A stretch of 56,859 nucleotides of DNA, counting the filler, from Sphacelaria rigidula (lineage: Eukaryota), in the NCBI GenBank assembly GCA_964200075.2. It is 4 parts of 4 records of this genome, joined end to end, with 100 filler letters (N's around TTAATTAATTAA, not from the genome) between each part and the next. Parts side by side here need not be neighbours in the genome. Positions count along the whole stretch, not along the records: positions 42,722 to 56,859 come from CAXNAA020002435.1; 3 more parts are not named here. One strand, 5' to 3'. The notes beneath the pieces were generated by a model. It was given only the letters and a program-made list of their open reading frames with translations. It was not told the DNA's origin and ran no database searches. Every line of letters starts with the position of its first letter. The first letter of the stretch is position 1. The translations under genes and the position numbers were made by a program. Shown one piece after another: positions 24,818-56,859 of this stretch.

Positions 24818-25660
24818 ATGCCTCGAATGTGCTGCCATGTTGGTTGCTCTACGCGAGCATCGTACGGCCGACCAGGCACTCGAATGGCGGAGTTCTGTGT
24901 TGGACACGCCGAGCGCGGTATGCAGGACGTCGTTAGTAGAAAGTGCTGCAGCGTGGGCTGCGGAAGATACCCGTCGTACGGAGCGGAAGGAACCCGTAAG
25001 CCGCTGTTCTGCGTGGGGCATGCCAAAAAAGGAATGATCGACCTTGCGAACAAACGAAAGAAGTGCTTGCATAGCGGTTGCACCAAGAGGCCATCGTTCG
25101 GGTTCACGGGAACTAAGAAGGCAAAATACTGCGTGCAGCATGCTGAGGACGGAATGGTGCACGTGGTGAGCAAGAAGTGTATCCAAGAGGGCTGCAACAA
25201 GCAGCCGTCGTTCGCTCTTGCAGGAGAGACGATAGCGCGATTCTGCTCACAGCATGCCAGTGATGAGATGTTGAACATTGCATACAGGAGGTGTTCTCGC
25301 AAGGGTTGCTGCAGGCGGCCGTCGCATGGTTGGATGGGAACCGGTGACGCGAAATTTTGCAGCGGGTGTGCCGACGACGGCATGCTGGACTTGAGGCAAT
25401 CAAGAAATGTTGGGGCCCGCCGTTTGGAGTCGCTCGCGTGCCCTCCGTCAGTACAACTTGACATTGTTGACCCAGGGTTTCGCCGGGCGCCGTGGAAGTT
25501 TAAGCGCGTGAAAGCCCGTCGTCTGGAGACGGCTGCCAGCTATCCACCGGTACAACTTGACGTTGTTGACCCAGGGTTCCAACGGTCGTTTTGGCAGTTT
25601 AAGCGAGCCAGGCAGGACAGTAAGCGCGTAGTTCAAATCTTATTAGGTCCGCACGCTTAG
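24818..25660 (+). CDS. EsV-1-7 cysteine-rich repeat protein (5 repeats), intronless, 280 aa
   Basis: Five units of C-x3-G-C-x3-(P/A)-S-(Y/F/H)-G-x8-(F/Y)-C-x2-H-A-x2-G-M. The fifth unit has C in place of H. Confidence 0.9.
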   Translation: MPRMCCHVGCSTRASYGRPGTRMAEFCVGHAERGMQDVVSRKCCSVGCGRYPSYGAEGTRKPLFCVGHAKKGMIDLANKRKKCLHSGCTKRPSFGFTGTKKAKYCVQHAEDGMVHVVSKKCIQEGCNKQPSFALAGETIARFCSQHASDEMLNIAYRRCSRKGCCRRPSHGWMGTGDAKFCSGCADDGMLDLRQSRNVGARRLESLACPPSVQLDIVDPGFRRAPWKFKRVKARRLETAASYPPVQLDVVDPGFQRSFWQFKRARQDSKRVVQILLGPHA

Positions 25661-40079: not shown

Positions 40080-40997
40080 ATGCAACGACACATGATCGTC
40101 GCTGCTTCAGCCGCCTTGGCTGCGGTCGTGGTTGACGTCGGATACGGCTTTGTGTCACTATCTCCTGTTCCTGTACGGAGCGCGACCAGGGCCACCAGTT
40201 CGCTGTCTCCGACTGGATGGGTAAAGCATTCGTCACGTTTGATATTGCAACTGGAGAGCGGGCGACATTATGCGCAGAGGTCACACATCGCCATGTCCGA
40301 AAGCTTTGCGGACCGCGAGGCTGCTGTTCTTGAAGTGCTGTCGGCAGTAATTGATCCTGACCTCGGACAAGACATCGTCTCGCTTGGTTTCGTCAAGGAT
40401 ATTCAGATAGAAAATCGAGAGGGAGAAACTGAAGGAGCAGCGGTTGCTTTTAACGTGGAGCTGACCACACCCGCATGTCCTGTCAAGGAGGCTTTCCAAA
40501 CAGAATGCCGTGATCTCGTCGAAGAGTTGCCATGGGTTGGACGTGCTGATGTGAACATGACCGCCCAGCCCATGCGACCGCAATCGGACACTGTGCCTAC
40601 CGGCCTGTCGAAGGTTGCCAACGTTGTGGCAGTGTCTAGTTGCAAAGGTGGGGTGGGGAAATCCACGACAGCTGTGAATCTGGCCTATGCTTTACATGCT
40701 CAAGGCGCCAAGGTCGGAATCCTTGATGCTGATATATACGGCCCAAGTCTGCCGACTATGGTCAAGCCTGACAACGATGTGGTTGAATTTGTGGGAAACC
40801 AAATTCGCCCGTTGCAGGCTCACGGAGTGAAGCTCATGAGTTACGGCTTTGTCAATCAGGGCGCGGCCATCATGCGCGGACCGATGGTGTCTCAGCTACT
40901 GCAACAATTTGTAACGCTCACCAGCTGGGGGGAGCTGGATTACCTGGTACTTGACATGCCGCCGGGCACTGGCGACATTCAACTGACTCTGTGCCAG
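40080..40997 (+). CDS. HCF101: Plastid Fe-S cluster assembly factor HCF101 (Mrp/NBP35 family), exon 1; remainder not found on this contig
   Basis: Signal peptide plus GYG-FVS (ASAFAP-type) leader, DUF59 ([24 protein letters not shown]), Walker [36 protein letters not shown], and a CAG|GTGAG donor. Confidence 0.92.
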
Positions 40998-41394
40998 GTG
41001 AGGCTCGAGGATCATTTTCCGCACCTATTTTGGGTGTGTGTGTAATACCAACTTCCGGTAGATTTTGAAACAGTGAACATGATCTACATCGCTCGAGGCC
41101 ATGTTTTATGTGGGTGTGGATTTTTTTTCTCGATTGGATTTGTGTTGGAGAATCCAATCGGCCCAAATGTCGAGTGTTTTATCCCGCTTCGCCAAAGCCA
41201 ACGTGTGCACAGCCCACAACTTCCCCCACACAGTGACGATGAGAGCCGGCTATTTTGCATAACGTACCGACACAGGAAGTAGAGCAGCACACCAAGTATT
41301 GGGGCATGGCGTGGACCATGGCCGTCACATTGCTCCTGGCGGTGACGGAGGTCAGTTATTGAAGATATTCAAGGCTCCGCACCTTACACGTGCC

Positions 41395-44678: not shown

Positions 44679-47600
44679 GTGTTACGCTTGCTGCGAGAGA
44701 CCGAAGAAACGAGAAAACAATCCAACGAAACTGAAAACCTCCCCGAGGGTACGAGGAGTAGTGCTGCTGCATCTGACTGCATCACCGGACTACGAATGGA
44801 TCACACGGCGACGCCTCGTGGTATTGCCATTCCACAGGCGGATGGCGCGGATGGTACTGATGTGAGCCATGACAAGCAGCAGCAACCTACGGAAACCACC
44901 CTAGAGCTAAGCTTCTACCGCATCAGCAGCTCAACTAGGTCAACCAAAATTTCAGTGGGCACGTGGGTGGTTGTTAGTCGAATGCGTGATATGCCTGGAC
45001 GTCGCCGTATGCGCGGCGACGGTAGTGCAACAGGTGAAGGAAAAGAAGGGTGCAAATCCGGTCGAACGTTCGCGCTTGTGATGGACAGGCCGCCGAAATC
45101 TTCCCAGGTCCCGCCATCGGGACTACATTGTGTGGGACAGGTTGTCCAGTTCAACGAGACCCCAATGAACGTTGTGGTGGCTCTTCAAGGGTGCCTGCAG
45201 GCAGCTCCTTGGGTTGTGAGACGGTGCCTCTCCCGGAAGCACAAGTGGCTATGGAGGTTGGATTCCGTTGGTAACATCACTGACTATCAGCGAAGCATGC
45301 GCAGTCTAAAGCGCGTGTCGGACTTCGGCACTCAGGCTACCCCCCTCCTGGATATTCTCGTTCACAGTCACGGGCACCACAAAAGCCTCGTTCGTGATGT
45401 CGACGGCCTTGCGAAAATCGAGCAAGCCCCCCCGCATGATATCAGCGGGGATTCAATTCTGTGTTCTCCCCAGGGGCCCGTGCACACTCATCAACATACC
45501 TCGACTAGCACAAACGGTCTCCAGCTAAATGCCAGTCAGCGTAGGGCGGTCGAAGCCGCGTTGTCGCAGCGGATAACTCTCATACATGGTCCTCCGGGTA
45601 CAGGAAAGACATCGGTGGTATGTGAGGTGGTTACCCAAGCTGTACGGGCCAACATAATGCGATCGAGGACCGGGAGCGGGAGTAGCTGCATCACCCGTCG
45701 CATGAAGACGTTAGTGGTAGCAGAAACAAATATTGCGGTGGACAACGTCCTGCGCCGTCTTTTGAAGACCACTGACCTTGTGCTCCTACGCCTAGGGAAT
45801 TTGTCCTCAGTGTCTTCAGACCTCGTTTATACTACCCTAGAGATGCAGCTGCGCAGGCGCTGTAGAGACGCTGGACGCGAGGCCACGTTCCGTGTGGCTG
45901 GAGGCGGTGGTACTCATCGCGTCGTGAGAGACAATCGCGCAGCGCAAAAGATCCTCAACGCGGCTGAAGTAGTTTTTGCTACATGTTCAGGAGCCGGGGA
46001 CCCTCTACTGGCCAAATCAAGTCTCCTGTTCGACTTGGTACTGCTGGACGAGGCGACCATGTCAACCGAGCCTTCTACGCTGAACGCTCTTGTTTACGGA
46101 GCCCGTCAGCTTGTACTCATTGGAGATCCACAACAATTGGCGCCCACGCTAGGATTAGACTGTACGCCTAAAGATCCGCAGGCGTCAGGAAGCACAAGCC
46201 AACTACTGGCCCTACGGCAATCGGGCACCACAGATTCAAATGATACTGGTGCGGAAGAGTTCAAAGGGGATTCTCCTCTTCAAGAGGTGGGCGATGATCA
46301 AAAACGCGGGACTCTGGCGAGAGAGCAGAGACACCATGGTGGTGCGTTCGAAGAATGCAAAGCCGAGGCAGCTAATGGAGATGGAGATGACATTGGGCGT
46401 GGTCTGGAGTCTGCGTCACCGCAGCTTGTCGAGCTATCAACGACGCTGTTCCACCGTCTGCATGACGCATTAAACGCGTGTTTCCTCGATACGCAGCACA
46501 GGATGCACCCCGGCTTGGCAGAATTTCCCAGTCAGGAGTTCTACGACGGAAAACTGATGTCTGGAGTCCAGGCAGAAGATCGGATTCCGCCTGACTTTCC
46601 GTGGCCAGACCGAACCAGGTAAGTGGCGCTGTTACGTGGAATCAATGTAACACCAGGGATCAATTCGCCGATGCATTTGATCGCTTCGTAGATCGGTCGT
46701 GCGGACTTGGTCACCGACTTACACTTTTGATGTACCAGACATTGTACATTCCCGCATACACGTACGCAAATACATGGAACCATTTTGAGTATCATGTTTT
46801 ATCAACATTGTGGTCGATCGGGAGTAATAGGCTAGCAAGCCATTACTACATCCGGTCGGTTGATCTGGTGCTGTGCAATCTGGTGCTGTGTGATCTGGTG
46901 CTGTGTGATCTGGTGCTGTGCGATCTGGTGCCTATACATAACCTCTTGGTGTGAAATTTCGACATTCGCGAGGTATGAACCTTGTCATCTTTCACACGTC
47001 GAACAACTCATGAACTAGCTCATCTGCGGCCCGTAGTTCACTCGTAGTAAAAAATATACATGAGAGCTACGTCCGGTAGCTCACCCAGGAATAATTTGAG
47101 CTGATGCGCTACTAGTCGGTAGCTCACCCCGGGCAAACATGCGTAGCTCATGCAGCTTTCATAGCTCACTCAGGGCGAATATGAGCTGATCAGCTACAGA
47201 TTGGTAGCTCACGTAGGGCAAACATGTGTAGCTCATGCAGCTATCATAGCACCCAGGGCAATCATGCGTAGCTCATGTAGCTTTCATAGCTCACTAGGGA
47301 GCTACGCTAAGATAGAGCTAGCTCGAGCTACAGGGAGCTGATTTGTCCGACGTGTGCAACGTTTAGTCTTACGTACGACGTTCGACGCGGGCTATTTTGT
47401 ACCTTGCTTCCACCGCGACCAGACCTCTTTGTTTCATTGACGTCCGAGAAACAACGGAGAGACGTGCTGGTACCTCGTTTGCTAACGACGGCGAAGTTCG
47501 AGCGGTAGTCCTTGTGATCAGACTTCTTTTGGAGAATGGAATGGAACCCCGTCATATCAGCGTTCTCACGCCATACACTGGGCAAGTTCGAGTGGCTCGT

Positions 47601-49872: not shown

Positions 49873-50100
49873 GCTTCGTCCGTGACCGGCAAAAATCGAT
49901 ATATGATAGCCTAACAGCTGTTTGTGAATAAACTGGTCATCCGTGACGCCAGCGATTCGAATGGTGCCCCTTCGACAGGCAACACCACCACTTCATCCGT
50001 GACCGCGGAAATCGATATATGATAGCTGAACAGCAATTAATTGGTGAATGAACTAGTCGTCCGTGAAGTCAGCGATTCGAACGGTGCCCCTTCGAGAGGC
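49873..50100. repeat. ~118-bp tandem duplication
   Basis: TCCGTGACC...AAATCGATATATGATAGC...CAGCGATTCGAAxGGTGCCCCTTCGA occurs twice. Confidence 0.85.
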
Positions 50101-51086
50101 ATATACCATGGAGCAATATCACGATGGAACTTGACGTGAAACGCAAGATACATAAACCACCGGTGCCATCTCAACCCCTAGCCTCGACGGCCTCCCTAAT
50201 AAGAGGAGTTGACAACCAAGGATCATATGTCTTGGGCTAGGAAGTTATTGCGATTTGAGATAACCAACTACATACTTGCGCTTGGATCTTGACTTTATAG
50301 CAACATCACGGTGCAACATTTGGCGGCCCAACGAAATCATAACCCATGTAACAATTTCAGTATGTCTTGCTTTGAGCCAATGTATACGCTGCATATTAAA
50401 ATATCGTGATTGTCACAATCCCCCGCCCCTCTGCACCGGGAGGTATCCCCCTCCAACGCTGCCTCATTTCGCATATACCGATATGAGGTTCACGTGGCAT
50501 GACTAAATTGCAGGATTGGTGCGAAGCAGTTACGCCCAGGTAGATCATGTTTCCCAAAAAGCAGGAGGTAGCAGTAGAGCCGGCGTGGCTAGGTGATCGA
50601 ACGAATGCGGTGTACACTCGTGTCGATGACGATACCACCGGAAGAGCAACAGCAGAGGGGAAGCTCCTCGCCCGTGTCCTTTGTGTGTCCTCATGTTGCG
50701 AGCATATACCCAATTTGCCATGTGCCGGCAGGCGGGCTATTGCTCCACAGCCCCGCAAAAATGTCGAGGTGCCGAGGGATGCCGTCTCTCCTTGTCTGTG
50801 GCACTGACCAATGCAAAGATCTATTCCTCTCTGCCTCTCCTTTTGGATAGGACGCGCATCTGTGCGCTGCAAAACACAACGTTGAAAAAGAGGGCGATGT
50901 TCCCGTTATCACCACTACTGTTCTCCCTTACACACAAGGCAGTGAGGGCGGTTGCGGCAATAATATCCAATTGAAACTTGAGGGGTGTTATCGTCATCGT
51001 TGATTTTTCCCAACATCTGCACCTGTGCGTGCACGACAAGGACAAGAATGTGCCACACCCCAGTTGGGGAAATGTATGAGAGATCA

Positions 51087-52372
51087 AACACACTTGTGGA
51101 GACCGTCTTAGCTTGCGGATCGAAACATTAATGAAAGCTCCGGCGGTGACCTAACTGTTGCTGGCGTGACCCATAGAGGGGGCGTCATTCCGTAATCTGA
51201 GCTCTTCTGATGCATAACTGGTCCAGAGCTCAGCAGACTGCGTGGGTTCGGGTATGTTTCGAAACGCCCCGTGTGAGTAGGTCATTACAAGCTGGGGCGA
51301 AACATGTGGTTTCCCAAGGAACAAGAGTGTTCTGTGATCAAGCACTTTACGTCGAATTTGTGACCCACGTCATAAACCGCCGACCGTAAAGGTCTTGGCT
51401 GAGAACAGCTCTCATCATGCAGCGTTGGCGGCAGTACGTGAAACAAGACCAGACATAGATCACCTTCTTTGCTTTACTGACTGACTGTACAATCAGGGTA
51501 GCACCGAAAATTACAATGGTTGTGCAATCGAACAGTGTTGTTTTTTCAACTTCTTTCATGTAATCAAAACGGCTCTCAAGAGCTGTGGGAAAATGCCCGC
51601 TTTGAGTTCGATCAAACATGAGAAGATACTGTCCAACAGTTATACCAAAGGGTTATGGGATTGGCATCGACCAACCAATATAGAACAAAACTGAAATGGA
51701 TACGTTTAAGTTCGACATGAAAAATTGTGTCGATATAACGCTTTGCAGGTGGGAAAACGTGGAATCTCATTTAGAGCAAAGTCTCTGTGCCTGTCAATGT
51801 TCCATAGAGCTTGTAAATCATATGTCGTCGCTTTCTAAACACCTGGCGAGAGCGGGGAAGGCACCCTCCCGCAGCCAATGGGAGCCGTTTTGATTCTATG
51901 GGACAAGTTTACAAACAGCACTGTTCGACTGCACAACCATTGTAAATTTCGGTGCTTTGCTGATTGTACAGTCAGTCAGAGTAGAGCAAATAAAATGAGC
52001 TAGGTCCGGGCTTGTCTACTGTACCGCCACCAACACTGCTTGAGCGCTATTCTTAGCCAAGACCTTTACGGTCAGTCGGCCATTGATGGCACGGATCACA
52101 AATTCAACGGAAAGTGCTTGATCACAGAGCACTCGTGTTTCTTGGGAAACCATAGGTGTGGCCACAGCTTGTAATGACCTACTCACACGGGAGGTTTCGA
52201 AACATGCCCACACCCACGCAGTCTGCTGAGGACCGGACCGGCTGTGCATCAGCAGAGCTCAGACTACAGCATGGCGGCCCCTCTATGGGTCACGCCAGCA
52301 ACAGTTAGGTCACCACCGGATCTATCACTAATGTTTCACTCCGCATGCTAAGACGGTCTCCACAAGTGTGTT
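51087..52372. mobile_element. Long-TIR foldback element (~460-bp arms, non-coding), Mutator-like architecture
   Basis: 51087-~51545 is the diverged reverse complement of ~51915-52372. Confidence 0.85.
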
Positions 52373-52374
52373 CG

Positions 52375-52526
52375 TGTTCGAAATTATTAGCTGGCACGGC
52401 ACTGTCTCACTCGACAGTTGAGCAGAGGCTTGCACTATAGCGGTAAAGCTACTTGCGAGGAGCCAGTGTAGTGAGATCAAGATAGTGTAGTTCGGCGCTT
52501 TTGGCCTAAACTATCGTTTCCCAACT
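52375..52526 (-). repeat. 3' LTR (~150 bp)
   Basis: The first ~45 bp match 56713-56760; a polypurine tract is adjacent on the minus strand. Confidence 0.75.
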
Positions 52527-52881
52527 CTCTCTCCCCCCTCAAAAAACACCCTTCCCAAAAGGGAGAAAAAAAAGGACAAAGTAGGCAAGGACGGAAAGAA
52601 CATCGCAAGCCTAGAGATCGTTGCACGCATTGTTCCTATAGCGTGTTTTCTGGACCTTGTATCATAAATTCAGGAGTCTGCACACTGTGGTTTTAGGATG
52701 CTCCTCTGGACCTTGAGACTGCACTCGAATAAAAACAAAACATTCAAAACAAATTTATTCAACGCAGGTAATTTTCCGCGCCTTCTTTATAATGTACGAG
52801 TATTACAGGCATCCTACACCTACTTGGGTTCTATCACTCAATCACACTTCTTGACCGAAAAATCGAACAAAATCAAGTTCC

Positions 52882-53451
52882 TCAAACTCCGGTAACCGCG
52901 TTTGGGTCTCTGTAGTAAATGGTTGGTCGATTAGGACGAGAAATCAACCGGATTCCATAGAATCTGTCAATTAGGGCGTCGTATATCCTCCTCAGCTCAA
53001 GGAAGTCGAATTCCAACGGGCATTCGATGTGGCATGCCTTGACTAAAAAGTTAAAGATCCTAACATCAATAAACAAAAGCAAGTCGTTGTGGAGGTACAA
53101 CTGTGGTAGGCTCCTAAACAAATCACGGATACTGGGATACTCTCGGTCATCGGTGAACCCGTACGTCTTGAGTGTATCCGCCATCCTTGCTCGCTCCTCT
53201 GATTGCTGTCCGGGAATCATGATGTCCAGACAAATGGAAGCTCGGGCTCCCCAATCGCTGTAAGGCATTGCGCGTCCTTGGACTTGTAGTTGTTGGTTGT
53301 TTAGGCGTGCCCGTGCGTTGGGCGTCACCCCGTGTCTTGATCTCTGGCGGTGCGCGGTGCGCGGTGCACGACCATTAGTCGCAGAGTTTTGTGCGGATTG
53401 TCCGCGCGTGGTTTTTGTTCCGTTGTTGTTGGTGTTGACTCGGTAGCTCAT
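52882..53451 (-). CDS. Additional 3' ORF of the copia element, 189 aa, unknown function
   Basis: Intact ATG-to-stop frame, sense to pol, lying between RNase H and the PPT. Minus-strand AATAAA at ~52754-52759. Confidence 0.7.
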   Translation of the reverse strand: MSYRVNTNNNGTKTTRGQSAQNSATNGRAPRTAHRQRSRHGVTPNARARLNNQQLQVQGRAMPYSDWGARASICLDIMIPGQQSEERARMADTLKTYGFTDDREYPSIRDLFRSLPQLYLHNDLLLFIDVRIFNFLVKACHIECPLEFDFLELRRIYDALIDRFYGIRLISRPNRPTIYYRDPNAVTGV

Positions 53452-53492
53452 GGTGTTGGTGAGTGGGTAGAAGATGCTGAAGGTTGGATTAA

Positions 53493-53591
53493 CCCTTGGA
53501 CAGCGAGAGTAGTCTTCTGTTGAATCGGCATCAATTTCAAGTGAAACAAAGTATGCATGACCCAGATAAGACTACCCTCGCGGTCTGAGGG
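53493..53591. mobile_element. 99-bp piggyBac-like MITE
   Basis: TTAA on both sides (53489-92, 53592-95); 24-bp TIR CCCTyrGACmGCGAGrGTAGTCTT. Confidence 0.8.
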
Positions 53592-53693
53592 TTAAAAAAT
53601 GTAGAGGGTTGATAGGTGTTATGATGCTGTGCCCCTGGGATGTTCGAGATGTCGCTTGGGTGATGACACTCGAACAAAATCAGAACGTCGAAA

Positions 53694-53847
53694 GTGAGCG
53701 TTGGAGATGATGGTAGTGGTTGAGCGTTGACGATGATGATCGAAGTTGAACGTTGACGATGATGATCGAGGTTGAGCGTTGACGATGATGATCGAAGTTG
53801 AGCGTTGACAATGATGATCGAAGTTGAGCGTTGACGATGATGCTGAA
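53694..53847. repeat. 26-bp tandem array (5 copies plus 1 degenerate)
   Basis: Unit GTTGAGCGTTGACGATGATGATCGAA. Confidence 0.92.
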
Positions 53848-54794
53848 GAAAAATATCCTCCCAGATCACTATCCGTTACCTCCCAAATTCGGTTATGGCC
53901 TTCAGGAGTCTCTCTGATGTTCGATTCTATTCCAGCTTTTAGTGAGAAGATCCGCAAATTGTTCCGAAGATCGTACATAGTTTATCCTTCGTTGTCCGGC
54001 TCGAATCATATATTTTAAATTAAAGAATCGCATCGCAGTTGTTTCGAGCTGATGCTGAAGTTGGCGTTTGAAGACAGATGAAGTGCGCCTTGTGAATCCG
54101 AGTAGATAGTCGCGGGCTCAATAGATGACCATCCAAGCTCTCGTATTAGATTGAAGAGATACGTTCCGAATTTGCCGCATTTCGAAAGGGCAATTAACTC
54201 GGCATATGTCGTTGAAGTGGCTGTTATACGTTGTAAGCTCGGAGTGAAATGAACTAGCCCGTTAGATAGAAAAAATAACGTCCCCATTGTTGATCGCATT
54301 TCCCCCTGAAGTCCGACATTACCATAGCTTGTGGTTCTCCTGTCGTTGGGTCGAACGTCTCGAAACCAGGCGGTTGTCTCCGGAATACTGTTACATCTAG
54401 CTTGCCGTTCAAGAAAGCAGTGTGTACGTCGGGGGCTAAAATAGGCCAATTTGTTTTTCGCAGTAGGAATTGCCAGTAACAATCGCTGACTTTCCAACCT
54501 GTAAAATGGAGCGACCTGTTCAACTCCGACAGTGCCTTTGTACTGACATACCATTTCCCGTGTTTCTGCAGCATGTTGACCCGCAGAACACATGAAAGCT
54601 AGTCGCTTTAGCTCACTGGCTTGCCATTTGTTGACGGGTCCAGGAGGATGATGATTGGGACCACCGGCTGAACGCAACCTGAGTCATCCTACGATAGGGG
54701 GGGGGGGTATTTGGTTGCACGAAAAAAGAGGCTTATAAGTGTGTCAGACATCCTTCCACACTTGCGTTGCGCTTGTATTTGGTTCCAAACGGTG

Positions 54795-55430
54795 TCAGGC
54801 AGTATGGATGACATTTCTAGAGCTGGATATTTTCCGCGAGTAGCAGTTGTAAATGCGGTATGATGGACGATCGGAATCATACCCTACTAGCCCTCCTTCC
54901 CAAGCCTTTTCTTCTAACTTACTGTGATGACGCTCCCTGTGCACAAACGCCCTCGAGCCGATTGTCCGCAAGGATGATAGCTTCGGTTGCTTGAGAAAAT
55001 TAAAAAAATATGGTGTATCGCCGCCGATGCTCGTGTGCGGTAGGCGATTGATCAAAAAGACCGCAGTTGCAACAATTTCTCCCCAAAGAAATTTCGGCAA
55101 ATTCGATTCATTCAGGAGACAACGAGTAACGTTCAAGATGCTCCGCCCGTCTCTTTCACTGATGCCATTCTGCTGTGGAGTATATGGATTGGTGAACTCT
55201 TGGCGGATGCCCGTAGTCTTGCAGTACTTCTTAAAATAGTCCGCGACGTCCTCACCCCCACGGTCTGACTGCAGACGGTATACACGGAATCCTAACAGAA
55301 TAGCCAAATCTTGGATGAACCTGCAGAGCGTAGTTAGGGTCTCATCCTTCGTTTTGATGAAGTAGACTACCTTGAAACGCGAGAAGTGATCCGTAAATTT
55401 TGCCATGTAGTGGTGGCCGCCCTGCGCCAT
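54795..55430 (-). pseudogene. Copia integrase core
   Basis: FTDHFSRF, LQSDRGGE, PYTPQQNGISER, WGEIVATAVFLINRLP and SKLEEKAWEG. Confidence 0.9.
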
Positions 55431-56094
55431 GGGCGTATTCGGCCCTGTTAGTGCTGACCAATTGCAGTCGTTCCGAAATGTTCGTGGAGTCTACGGTCTT
55501 TGGGTGGTCCTGCTGTACACTTTTATTAAGCTTGCACGTTACACAAGGTGACAGTGACCCCTTAAAGTTCACACCTGATTCCGAAATGTTCAGTAGTTGG
55601 CGCATGACCTGCTCCGTGGGGTGTCCAAGTCGGTTCTGCTCCCGCTGTGGCAGACATGGCTGCTGAATTTCCCGGCATGTCGTGGCGAATGACTTCTGCA
55701 ACAATGGCTGACCCTATGCCCATAGATTCTCCAGACATGATTGCAGTTGTAAATGTTGAGCTGTTATTGATAAATATTACCCGCTTTCCGAGAAACTCTC
55801 ACGCTGATGTACTGTAACGCTCCGTTGCTGTCACTGTTAATTGGCACTGATTCTCTGTTTTGAAGAATTCTGATACTTGGAAATCAAAGCCTCCCATGCA
55901 CGTTTGCCGTTTGGTCTCTCTGAACCTTTCGGTTGGAAACGCAACAAATAACACGCTGCAGGACCAGTTGTAGACAGATACAAGACGTGGAATAATTGTT
56001 GATTGCATCGGTCCCAACTTTCTATCTCACGCGTGTTAGAAACCCGCCTCACATGTGACACCACGCTTGGAGAACGAAATTCTAGTGCAAAATG

Positions 56095-56454
56095 TTAGTC
56101 TTCTTCGGTAGCTCCAGTCCCATCCACCGCTGCAATCGTCTCGTCCCCCGCGGTTGCCTCCACCGATGAGAAGTGCGGTCGAACGGACGACTGCTGGCGG
56201 GTGGTTTGAGAACGAGTTCTAGCAGGGGTAGGTCTTGTGGCAGCTGGTTGTGGAAGATCTACCTCAGAAAATTCTTCTTCTAATTCCGTGGGGCGTTCGA
56301 CCCCGTTAAGGATATCCGCAATCGCCGGATGAGTTAAAGAAATGATAGCGCGCGTGGAGCGCATCCGCTCGACGAACTTTGTACCGTCGAACTTGTTGAT
56401 GCTCTTGATGAGCTGAGTTACAGATGATTCTCCCGACATATTCATCTGCCTCAC
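56095..56454 (-). pseudogene. Copia gag N-terminal fragment
   Basis: INKFDGTKF motif downstream of the PBS; continues out of frame (GKRAWEALISKY). Confidence 0.7.
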
Positions 56455-56859
56455 GTTTCTAATAAAACTAGTCTCTTCACACCAGCAGATCTTTCGGAAA
56501 GATCAGGGTTCTTGGACTCTTGATTGTCGCTGCTGTAGCGACCTTGATATGACACCTCCTCGCTCGTGCTAACCGATGTAGTCTTGACGGAAGGGCTGAT
56601 GACCTGAAGACCTAGGTGGTCGCGAACCAAAGGCACCTGCTGGCTTGTGTGGTCCCGAACCTAGGCCGATAGCCTGTTGATCTATGTGGTCGCGAATCGA
56701 AGGCTCAAAACCTGTTGAAAATTATTTGCTGGTACGGCAGCACTGTCTCACTGGACAGTTAACCCTTCTGGGACCGTACCCCCACTAACACAGGGTTGAC
56801 CATGTGTTAGTGGAATAATAACAAATACGTCTTCGACCGACCTACCCAATCACAGCGAG

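Follow-up and report, generated by a model that had tools for sequence, protein, structure and literature searches.

Does the Ty1/copia retrotransposon at the right end of a 56,859-nt stretch of DNA from Sphacelaria rigidula (GCA_964200075.2) carry a third gene of its own, and if so, what kind of protein might this gene encode? We refer to the whole stretch as the window and give all coordinates along it. The element lies on the minus strand, in the part derived from CAXNAA020002435.1 (42,722-56,859), and its gag-pol region is decayed. An open reading frame (ORF) of 189 aa with an ATG start occupies 52882..53451 on the same strand. It is thus in sense orientation, between the C-terminus of pol, which ends at ~53890 in a three-frame reading, and the polypurine tract (52525..52540, minus strand, read from the sequence) and 3' long terminal repeat (LTR; 52375..52523), with ~340 nt of untranslated DNA between the ORF and the polypurine tract. 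An earlier note on this DNA had reported a sense ORF of this length and place, and we found it exactly as described. Its position is that of an aORF-3S, the term for additional ORFs that lie in sense orientation behind pol and ahead of the 3' LTR. To judge from its homologues, the ORF is a genuine protein-coding gene, and we lean towards reading it as an integral accessory gene of the copia family.

The length of the ORF is not sufficient to support the first of these conclusions. Nine ORFs of at least 189 aa with an ATG start are present in the window, and chance alone could give such a length. The conclusion that the ORF is a real gene follows from the existence of homologues. A phmmer search of 1.84 billion representative proteins (E<=1e-3) identified 23 relatives, of which 7 reached E<=1e-10 and 2 reached E<=1e-30. 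P0017, the closest of them, was 55% identical to the query over residues 2-189 (E 5.5e-50). A word-index search additionally identified the P0002 cluster, which is 53% identical, ends at the same residue, and consists of 15 near-identical but distinct variants, as would be expected of a repeat-borne gene. Once the upstream extensions introduced by gene callers were trimmed, the start methionine was shared (MSYRVN.., MSLRFN.., MSGRTF.. or MNARNG..), and so was the C-terminus (..TIYYRDP(N/D)AVTGV).

An alignment of 17 members, with identities down to 24-30%, had a conserved C-terminal domain and an N-terminal arm that was variable, yet always basic or Q-rich. Residues G98 and D129 were invariant, and seven further columns (M90, L94, D101, Y105, L115, L118, R131) were at least 90% conserved. 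The sequences fell into two subtypes. The first has the short motif TPNARARL in its arm; in the second, the arm is long, R, Q and E are abundant in it, and the motif is RRYVLRAVR-like. P0020, P0025, P0029 and P0038 belong to the long-arm subtype. Constraint is suggested by the homologues at 30-55% identity, which have kept the same start, stop and domain. A profile search of 5.8 billion proteins with the family alignment gave only 6 matches, all unnamed, and a pattern scan of metagenomes with family alignment A2 matched 473 stretches, of which 0 were confirmed. One metagenome locus found with P0011 as the query (L001) was rejected as a pattern artefact (hhalign probability 5.8%).

The protein has two parts, in agreement with the earlier description of a basic, disordered N-terminus followed by a globular, helical remainder. 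The arm (residues 1-62) has an isoelectric point (pI) of 12 and contains 11 K+R, 16 N+Q and 0 D+E. It carries the conserved TPNARARL motif and was modelled by AlphaFold2 with low predicted local distance difference test (pLDDT) scores. Residues ~65-175 were modelled as six helices with pLDDT values of 88-95, and this helical C-domain is acidic (pI 5.7). In the AlphaFold2 model of P0029, a member of the long-arm subtype, the arm was a single helix of 76 residues (pLDDT 90-97), and the helix layout of the C-domain was the same as in the query.

The product of the ORF is not env-like, as had been proposed, and is soluble. Its first 30 residues have a mean hydropathy of -1.46, and the highest value over 19 residues (1.64) came from a segment that includes D, R and K and forms two buried helices in the model. 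By hydropathy, in an analysis that included no dedicated predictor, there was no convincing membrane segment or signal peptide. A hydropathy of 1.6 or higher was reached by 1 of 42 family proteins, namely the query itself, and by none of the 41 others. The description of the gene as unrecognised was also borne out: no Pfam family matched the query or any of the 17 members (best RQC, E 0.22), a PDB sequence search returned nothing below E 0.58, and a Foldseek search against the PDB gave 0 matches at E<=1e-3.

The surrounding element has a copia-type layout, because the integrase precedes the reverse transcriptase (RT) in the order of Pfam matches on the minus strand. All coding features listed here are on this strand. 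The integrase core and an SH3-like domain (54795-55430; PF00665, E 2.4e-9, and PF25597, E 5.3e-17) follow a gag_pre-integrase domain (55342-55704; PF13976, E 3.4e-4), and the two lie in different frames within 54795..55704. An RVT_2 fragment is located downstream (54254-54574; PF07727, E 1.1e-5). Of the 244 profile positions, only 73-106 survive, which leaves its score of 25.6 bits short of the gathering score (31.6). The integrase upstream of RT, together with gag_pre-integrase, rve and RVT_2, assigns the element to Ty1/copia. The RT remnant and the RNase H/C-terminal part of pol occupy 53890..54680, with a change of frame near 54020 in the three-frame reading. A decayed gag (55837..56454) consists of two ORF pieces (56095..56454 and 55837..56064) with stops between them. 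The gag pieces had no Pfam match at E<=0.01 and were assigned by their position upstream of gag_pre-integrase.

The 3' LTR (minus strand, TG..CA, ~149 bp) was recognized by sequence reading and LTR comparison. Within the window, 56760-56713 matched 52419-52375 with 83% identity over 48 nt (E 4.5e-7). Apart from these last 48 nt of the 5' LTR (56713..56760, minus strand), nothing at the 5' end resembles the 3' LTR; the outer LTR end lies beyond the edge of the window. In a contig from a relative, 52515..52380 is joined straight to 56679..56481, that is, the LTR is followed by the leader and gag. This junction identifies 52523-52375 as the LTR of the family and places the ORF inside the element. 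An Rfam search over 51000-56859 gave no match.

Three short repeats of extremely high abundance lie within or next to the element. One of them, ~130 bp long and of very high copy number, lies at the integrase/RT boundary of pol (54681..54811). It was recognized by contig depth, which ranged from 316,920 to 548,155 in run X1 for the bins spanning 54528-54919, and by contigs with loose ends at 54681 and at 54811, seen in all 4 runs. This repeat contains a C-run and is unrelated to the 103-bp insert described below. Directly after pol, there is a tandem repeat of 26 bp x 6 (53688..53842; 86% matches, score 233).

The earlier note had pointed out that the ORF is intact although gag-pol is broken, and this is correct. 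Gag-pol contains in-frame stops in gag, has almost no room for a protease, changes frame, is interrupted by a nested repeat and has lost most of RT; altogether, the three-frame reading revealed 6 or more lesions that disable these genes over ~2.5 kb. At this rate, we estimate that an ORF of 570 nt would escape all lesions in about 1 of 5 cases. No special selection is therefore required to account for an intact ORF in this copy, and the suggestion that the gene remained under selection after pol had decayed is not needed. The copy in the window is best explained as a dead element, the short ORF of which has simply not yet been struck. Selection, as judged from the homologues, appears at the level of the family and not in this copy.

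In order to survey other copies, Logan contigs of four runs were placed on 51000-56859 at a likeness of at least 80%. The runs that contain the stretch are labelled as one coded organism and as "algae metagenome". Depth in X1 was ~29 in the unique flank, ~1500-2700 over pol, 464-1109 in the ORF bins and ~5000 in the LTR bin; according to the caution given with the tool, such summed depth is not equal to copy number. The element is a multi-copy repeat family. Twelve distinct X1 contigs covered the ORF at position 52972 and ten covered it at 53126, compared with 5-21 at the gag-pol positions listed. A diverged copy differed over 52876-53122 by 33 differences and 6 gaps in 247 nt, and X4 contained one record with 0 differences (record 19) and another with 5 (record 20). 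The contig counts and the diverged copies indicate that the ORF is present in many diverged copies. Position 109 is Arg in the window and Leu in every other contig.

Upstream of the ORF, sister copies differ from the window by an insert of ~103 bp (53489..53593) that resembles a miniature inverted-repeat transposable element (MITE). It has terminal inverted repeats of ~28 bp, found by self reverse-complement alignment, and a TTAA duplication, and it ends 38 nt upstream of the ATG. Contig joints 53488->53592 and 53490->53594, with sides of 58-71 nt, omit 103 nt. Such joints imply that sister copies have the leader without the MITE. The insert itself is abundant, with an X1 bin depth of 250,201 as compared to ~29 for unique DNA, and it is also abundant in a run guessed to be RNA. 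For the ORF bins, the cover in this run (X8) was 0.12-3.4, which is evidence neither way.

Several observations weigh against an integral gene with a function in the element. In X1, summed depth is lower over the ORF than over pol. Among the ORF variants listed, of which there are at least two, one is synonymous (L160) and another is R109L. Homologues outside this genome were compared as protein sequences, and no RNA run was listed among the runs that contain the stretch. All fold matches (see below) had Z<8, and nucleic-acid binding is proposed from composition and weak leads. In 3 of 4 runs, contigs that join 52892/52893 to 53754-53806, with shorter sides of only 21-26 nt, suggest that there are relatives without the ORF block, and the block is flanked by an exact 13-nt direct repeat. 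The ORF may be restricted to a subfamily, or be a secondary insert.

The last point leads to the alternative that survives best. The leader and ORF block (~53669-52876) could be a later insert or transduced piece in one subfamily, acquired from a host gene or from another mobile element. We give this possibility a real, if minor, share of the probability. The copies of the 13-nt repeat on the minus strand, at 53670..53682 and, 7 nt past the ORF stop codon, at 52863..52875, are identical in 13 of 13 positions and bracket the block. The joints point to relatives whose tandem array is followed directly by the 3' untranslated part. Moreover, the curated notes on the Ectocarpus Copia families (13 autonomous and 5 non-autonomous) list gag and pol only in the accessible portion of PMC12477816. 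However, apart from the separate 103-bp MITE, the block itself lacks terminal inverted repeats, LTRs and a poly(A) tail, and the searches turned up neither a copy outside repeats nor any named host gene. The direct-repeat score of 26, as compared to 17 +/- 2.2 for shuffled sequences (maximum 28), was beaten by 1 of 300 shuffles, and the shorter sides of the joints span only 21-26 nt. The joints are located within the last codons of the ORF (..AVTGV), which are kept in the distant homologues P0017 and P0019. Because of this location, the ORF-less forms are read as derivatives that arose by deletion, which fits better than insertion at this point, and they would then not represent the ancestral state. 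The earlier statement that the gene was captured remains unproven, since the flanking repeat and the block-less relatives, taken by themselves, fit deletion as well as insertion. We continue to prefer the reading as an integral accessory gene.

The 23 representative clusters and their deep divergence could also suggest that the homologues are ordinary algal cellular genes, and that the copy in the element is an incidental passenger or a pseudogene. This appears improbable. The gene is multi-copy here, with 10-12 contigs per ORF position, and 15 variants are found in the P0002 cluster. For the 11 clusters that were looked up, no member came from an annotated NCBI or UniRef proteome, which is what would be expected for repeat-masked DNA. 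Fused or longer forms were absent from 470 candidates, which is weak evidence.

A slightly less probable alternative concerns the extent of the gene. In copies without the insert, one frame could run from behind pol into the ORF, so that the true product would be longer than 189 aa. The open frame 53537..53869 (110 codons, over the tandem repeats) is one base off the frame of the ORF, the MITE between them has 103 nt, and callers extended P0002, P0017, P0031 and P0038 upstream of the conserved methionine. Against this, the methionine is found at the same place in P0001, P0012, P0017 and P0031, and P0020, P0025, P0029 and P0038 have an MD- start. Comparison of the upstream parts of P0002 and P0017 with the leader was not significant (BLASTP E 45 and 0.096), and the repeat period, 26, is not divisible by 3.

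Least probable of all, and very unlikely, is the proposal of the earlier note that the element captured a gene of viral descent, for a capsid, a nucleocapsid or a silencing suppressor. Many capsid proteins of RNA viruses typically have a basic, disordered arm at the N-terminus, but no tool result speaks for the proposal. No relatives were found in IMG/VR (67 pattern stretches, 0 confirmed) or by tblastn against phage records, a Foldseek search against BFVD gave 0 matches at E<=1e-3, the model is all-helical with no jelly-roll or other capsid fold, and there is no CCHC zinc knuckle (C-X2-C-X4-H-X4-C). A likeness to gag was not detected either (hhalign probabilities of 0.04% and 0.13% for the two gag pieces of the element), and an origin of the gene by gag duplication was rejected, as the protein resembles neither piece. 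A role as silencing suppressor or RNA chaperone, also mentioned at the outset, is pure conjecture.

Structural searches gave a weak lead. In the VIA search, values of Z<8 are below the level that the tool considers meaningful, and Z<6 may reflect a common arrangement of helices. The best match in the exhaustive search had Z 5.5, below the tool's typical best for models without a clear Foldseek match, which indicates that the fold has no close solved relative. Nine of the best 50 VIA rows were tyrosine recombinase core-binding domains or Ndc10 domain 1, which we take to be recombinase-like, with Z 3.3-5.5. The core-binding rows comprised Tn1549 Int, IntB, IntS, SSP1947, BC_1272, Cre and lambda Int, and covered model residues ~67-170. 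Individual values were Z 5.5 for 3sqi_A (root-mean-square deviation 3.2, 89 aligned residues), 4.1 for 6emy_A and 3.3 for 1kbu_A and 1p7d_A. The best re-scored Foldseek match was a BEN domain (8yzs_D, Z 4.1). The C-domain shares with the core-binding (SAM-like) domains and with Ndc10 domain 1 its helical nature and its size of ~100 residues. It differs from core-binding domains in that all Z are <6, identities are 2-11%, a catalytic domain is absent and there is no sequence signal. We regard the likeness to core-binding and BEN domains, seen in models, as a lead and not as evidence.

Two more specific candidates were rejected. The protein is not a tyrosine recombinase, as it has no catalytic R-H-R-Y domain and ends after the helical domain of ~110 residues; no Pfam integrase match was obtained for the 17 members. 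The top ESM Atlas matches shared 68-96 of 256 features with the query and included phage hypothetical proteins and AbiEii/DUF6036 nucleotidyltransferases. The best value (0.86-0.88) was below the lead level of 0.9, and the all-helical model is at odds with a nucleotidyltransferase. A fold search with P0029 was dominated by coiled coils, due to the long N-terminal helix, and was uninformative on the C-domain.

What might an integral accessory protein of this kind do? An Arg-rich arm free of acidic residues, a short conserved motif and a small acidic helical domain together make up the composition expected of a nuclear nucleic-acid-binding protein, and on this basis the product may be nuclear and bind nucleic acid. 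Because the ORF lies behind pol, ordinary scanning of the genomic RNA cannot translate it, and a subgenomic message is needed, which would be either spliced or internally initiated. A pyrimidine-rich ..CCTTCAG ~20 nt upstream of the ATG is a candidate splice site. The protein could then act in trans on the RNA or DNA of its own element, as a regulator, as a helper in RNA expression, export or packaging, or as a cDNA/target-binding or targeting factor. Any one of these activities (expression/export, packaging, cDNA or target binding), taken singly, is unlikely to be the right one.

The proposed protein could be likened to the small basic regulatory proteins of complex retroviruses. These proteins (Rev, Rex, Rec, Tas/Bel1) are encoded near the 3' LTR. 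As in these cases, the algal protein is small, has an arginine-rich N-terminal segment, is encoded downstream of the structural and enzymatic genes, and needs a subgenomic message. On the other hand, PDB sequence, Foldseek and VIA searches revealed no similarity to these proteins in sequence or fold. Regulators of the Rev/Tas type are not known from Pseudoviridae. The most far-reaching version of our reading would be a "complex" brown-algal (ochrophyte) Ty1/copia lineage that has long kept a third gene, encoding an arginine-rich regulator with an unseen helical fold that binds RNA or DNA of the element and controls expression, export or integration. This version is speculative and we consider it rather unlikely. 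If true, the ORF would be a retrotransposon counterpart of the retroviral Rev/Tas-type regulators, the first in Pseudoviridae, and the TPNARARL and long R/Q-rich subtypes would be diversified versions of one regulator.

The env-like ORFs of plant retrotransposons are long. In plant LTR retrotransposons, additional ORFs in sense orientation are known from the interval that separates pol from the 3' LTR (aORF-3S; Sireviruses, Athila, Bagy2), according to the accessible portion of PMC7264820. The algal ORF resembles the plant aORF-3S described there in place and orientation, in its presence in many copies per family, in that its function is unknown, and in that spliced subgenomic RNA is thought to be needed. 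The same portion of that source (PMC7264820) has plant ORFs called env-like for their transmembrane domains, whereas the algal ORF encodes a soluble protein of 189 aa with a basic arm and a helical domain. The algal ORF also differs in that its sequence relatives are confined to one small family, its own, and in that its host is an alga and not a land plant. The additional ORFs of bdelloid rotifer elements reportedly have recognizable enzymatic domains, and in this respect, too, the algal ORF is different, as no such domain was recognized. Bdelloid rotifer LTR retrotransposons with captured additional ORFs are described in the accessible part of PMC5408684 and share with the algal element the presence of a third ORF besides gag and pol, but both the hosts and the groups of elements differ.

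Among brown algae, the closest parallels come from Ectocarpus. The families Copia-11, Copia-12 and Copia-N3 are 7.2-9.1 kb long and are annotated with an "internal tandem repeat" (PMC12477816, accessible portion). Compared by description only, they are like the element in the window in being brown-algal, longer than gag-pol requires and equipped with an internal tandem repeat (cf. 53688-53842). A term search of the supplementary text of PMC12477816 retrieved no extra-ORF wording for copia families, and the available part of a preprint on brown-algal centromeres does not mention a third copia ORF. Full-text literature searching retrieved no account of copia elements with a third ORF from brown algae or stramenopiles, a result on which bioRxiv supplements might bear.

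LTR retrotransposons with an additional ORF are thus known, and what is new here is a family of non-env proteins. Most of the extra ORFs described for LTR retrotransposons come from land plants, and hardly any of them has a known function. The product of the ORF described here is short, soluble, confidently folded and deeply conserved, and it lacks relatives in Pfam, the PDB and named proteomes. As a conserved protein without known relatives, it defines a new protein family, one linked to a mobile element from a eukaryotic lineage that has received little study. If it is a trans-acting factor, copia-type elements can evolve regulatory complexity like that of retroviruses, and the protein would provide a handle on retrotransposon control in brown algae. 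Should it instead be no more than a passenger of a single subfamily, the case would be one of ordinary gene capture.

We also note irregularities at both ends of the element. The 5' LTR region 56761-56859, in which there is a 32-nt palindrome, does not resemble the 3' LTR and reaches ~17x the depth of the 3' LTR bin. It lies in a very high-copy repeat, and the bin 56684-56859 had a depth of 87,381 in X1. Some contigs join both LTR types; alternative LTRs, or an insertion into the 5' LTR, may be the cause. At the other end, two inverted arms of ~500 bp (51087-51590 and 51867-52372) that are 84% identical lie directly against the 3' LTR. The arms are high-copy in their outer ~85 bp and single-copy in the middle. 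The copia element appears to have inserted into or beside another repeat.

The remainder of the window contains other features. A 280-aa ORF on the plus strand (24818-25660) has five EsV-1-7 cysteine-rich motifs (PF19114, E 8.8e-65). The EsV-1-7 family is greatly expanded in brown algae and is typical of brown algae and their phaeoviruses, and this repeat protein, together with the labels of the runs, makes the brown-algal host assumed in the earlier note plausible. Two further ORFs on the plus strand are probably exons of host genes. One (44796-46622, 608 aa) has the superfamily-1 helicase domains AAA_11, AAA_12 and AAA_30, the other (40080-41045, 321 aa) matches FeS_assembly_P and a NUBPL/ParA-type P-loop NTPase. 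Finally, a direct repeat of 61 nt is present at 49921-49981 and 50041-50101, with 87% identity and a spacing of 120 nt.

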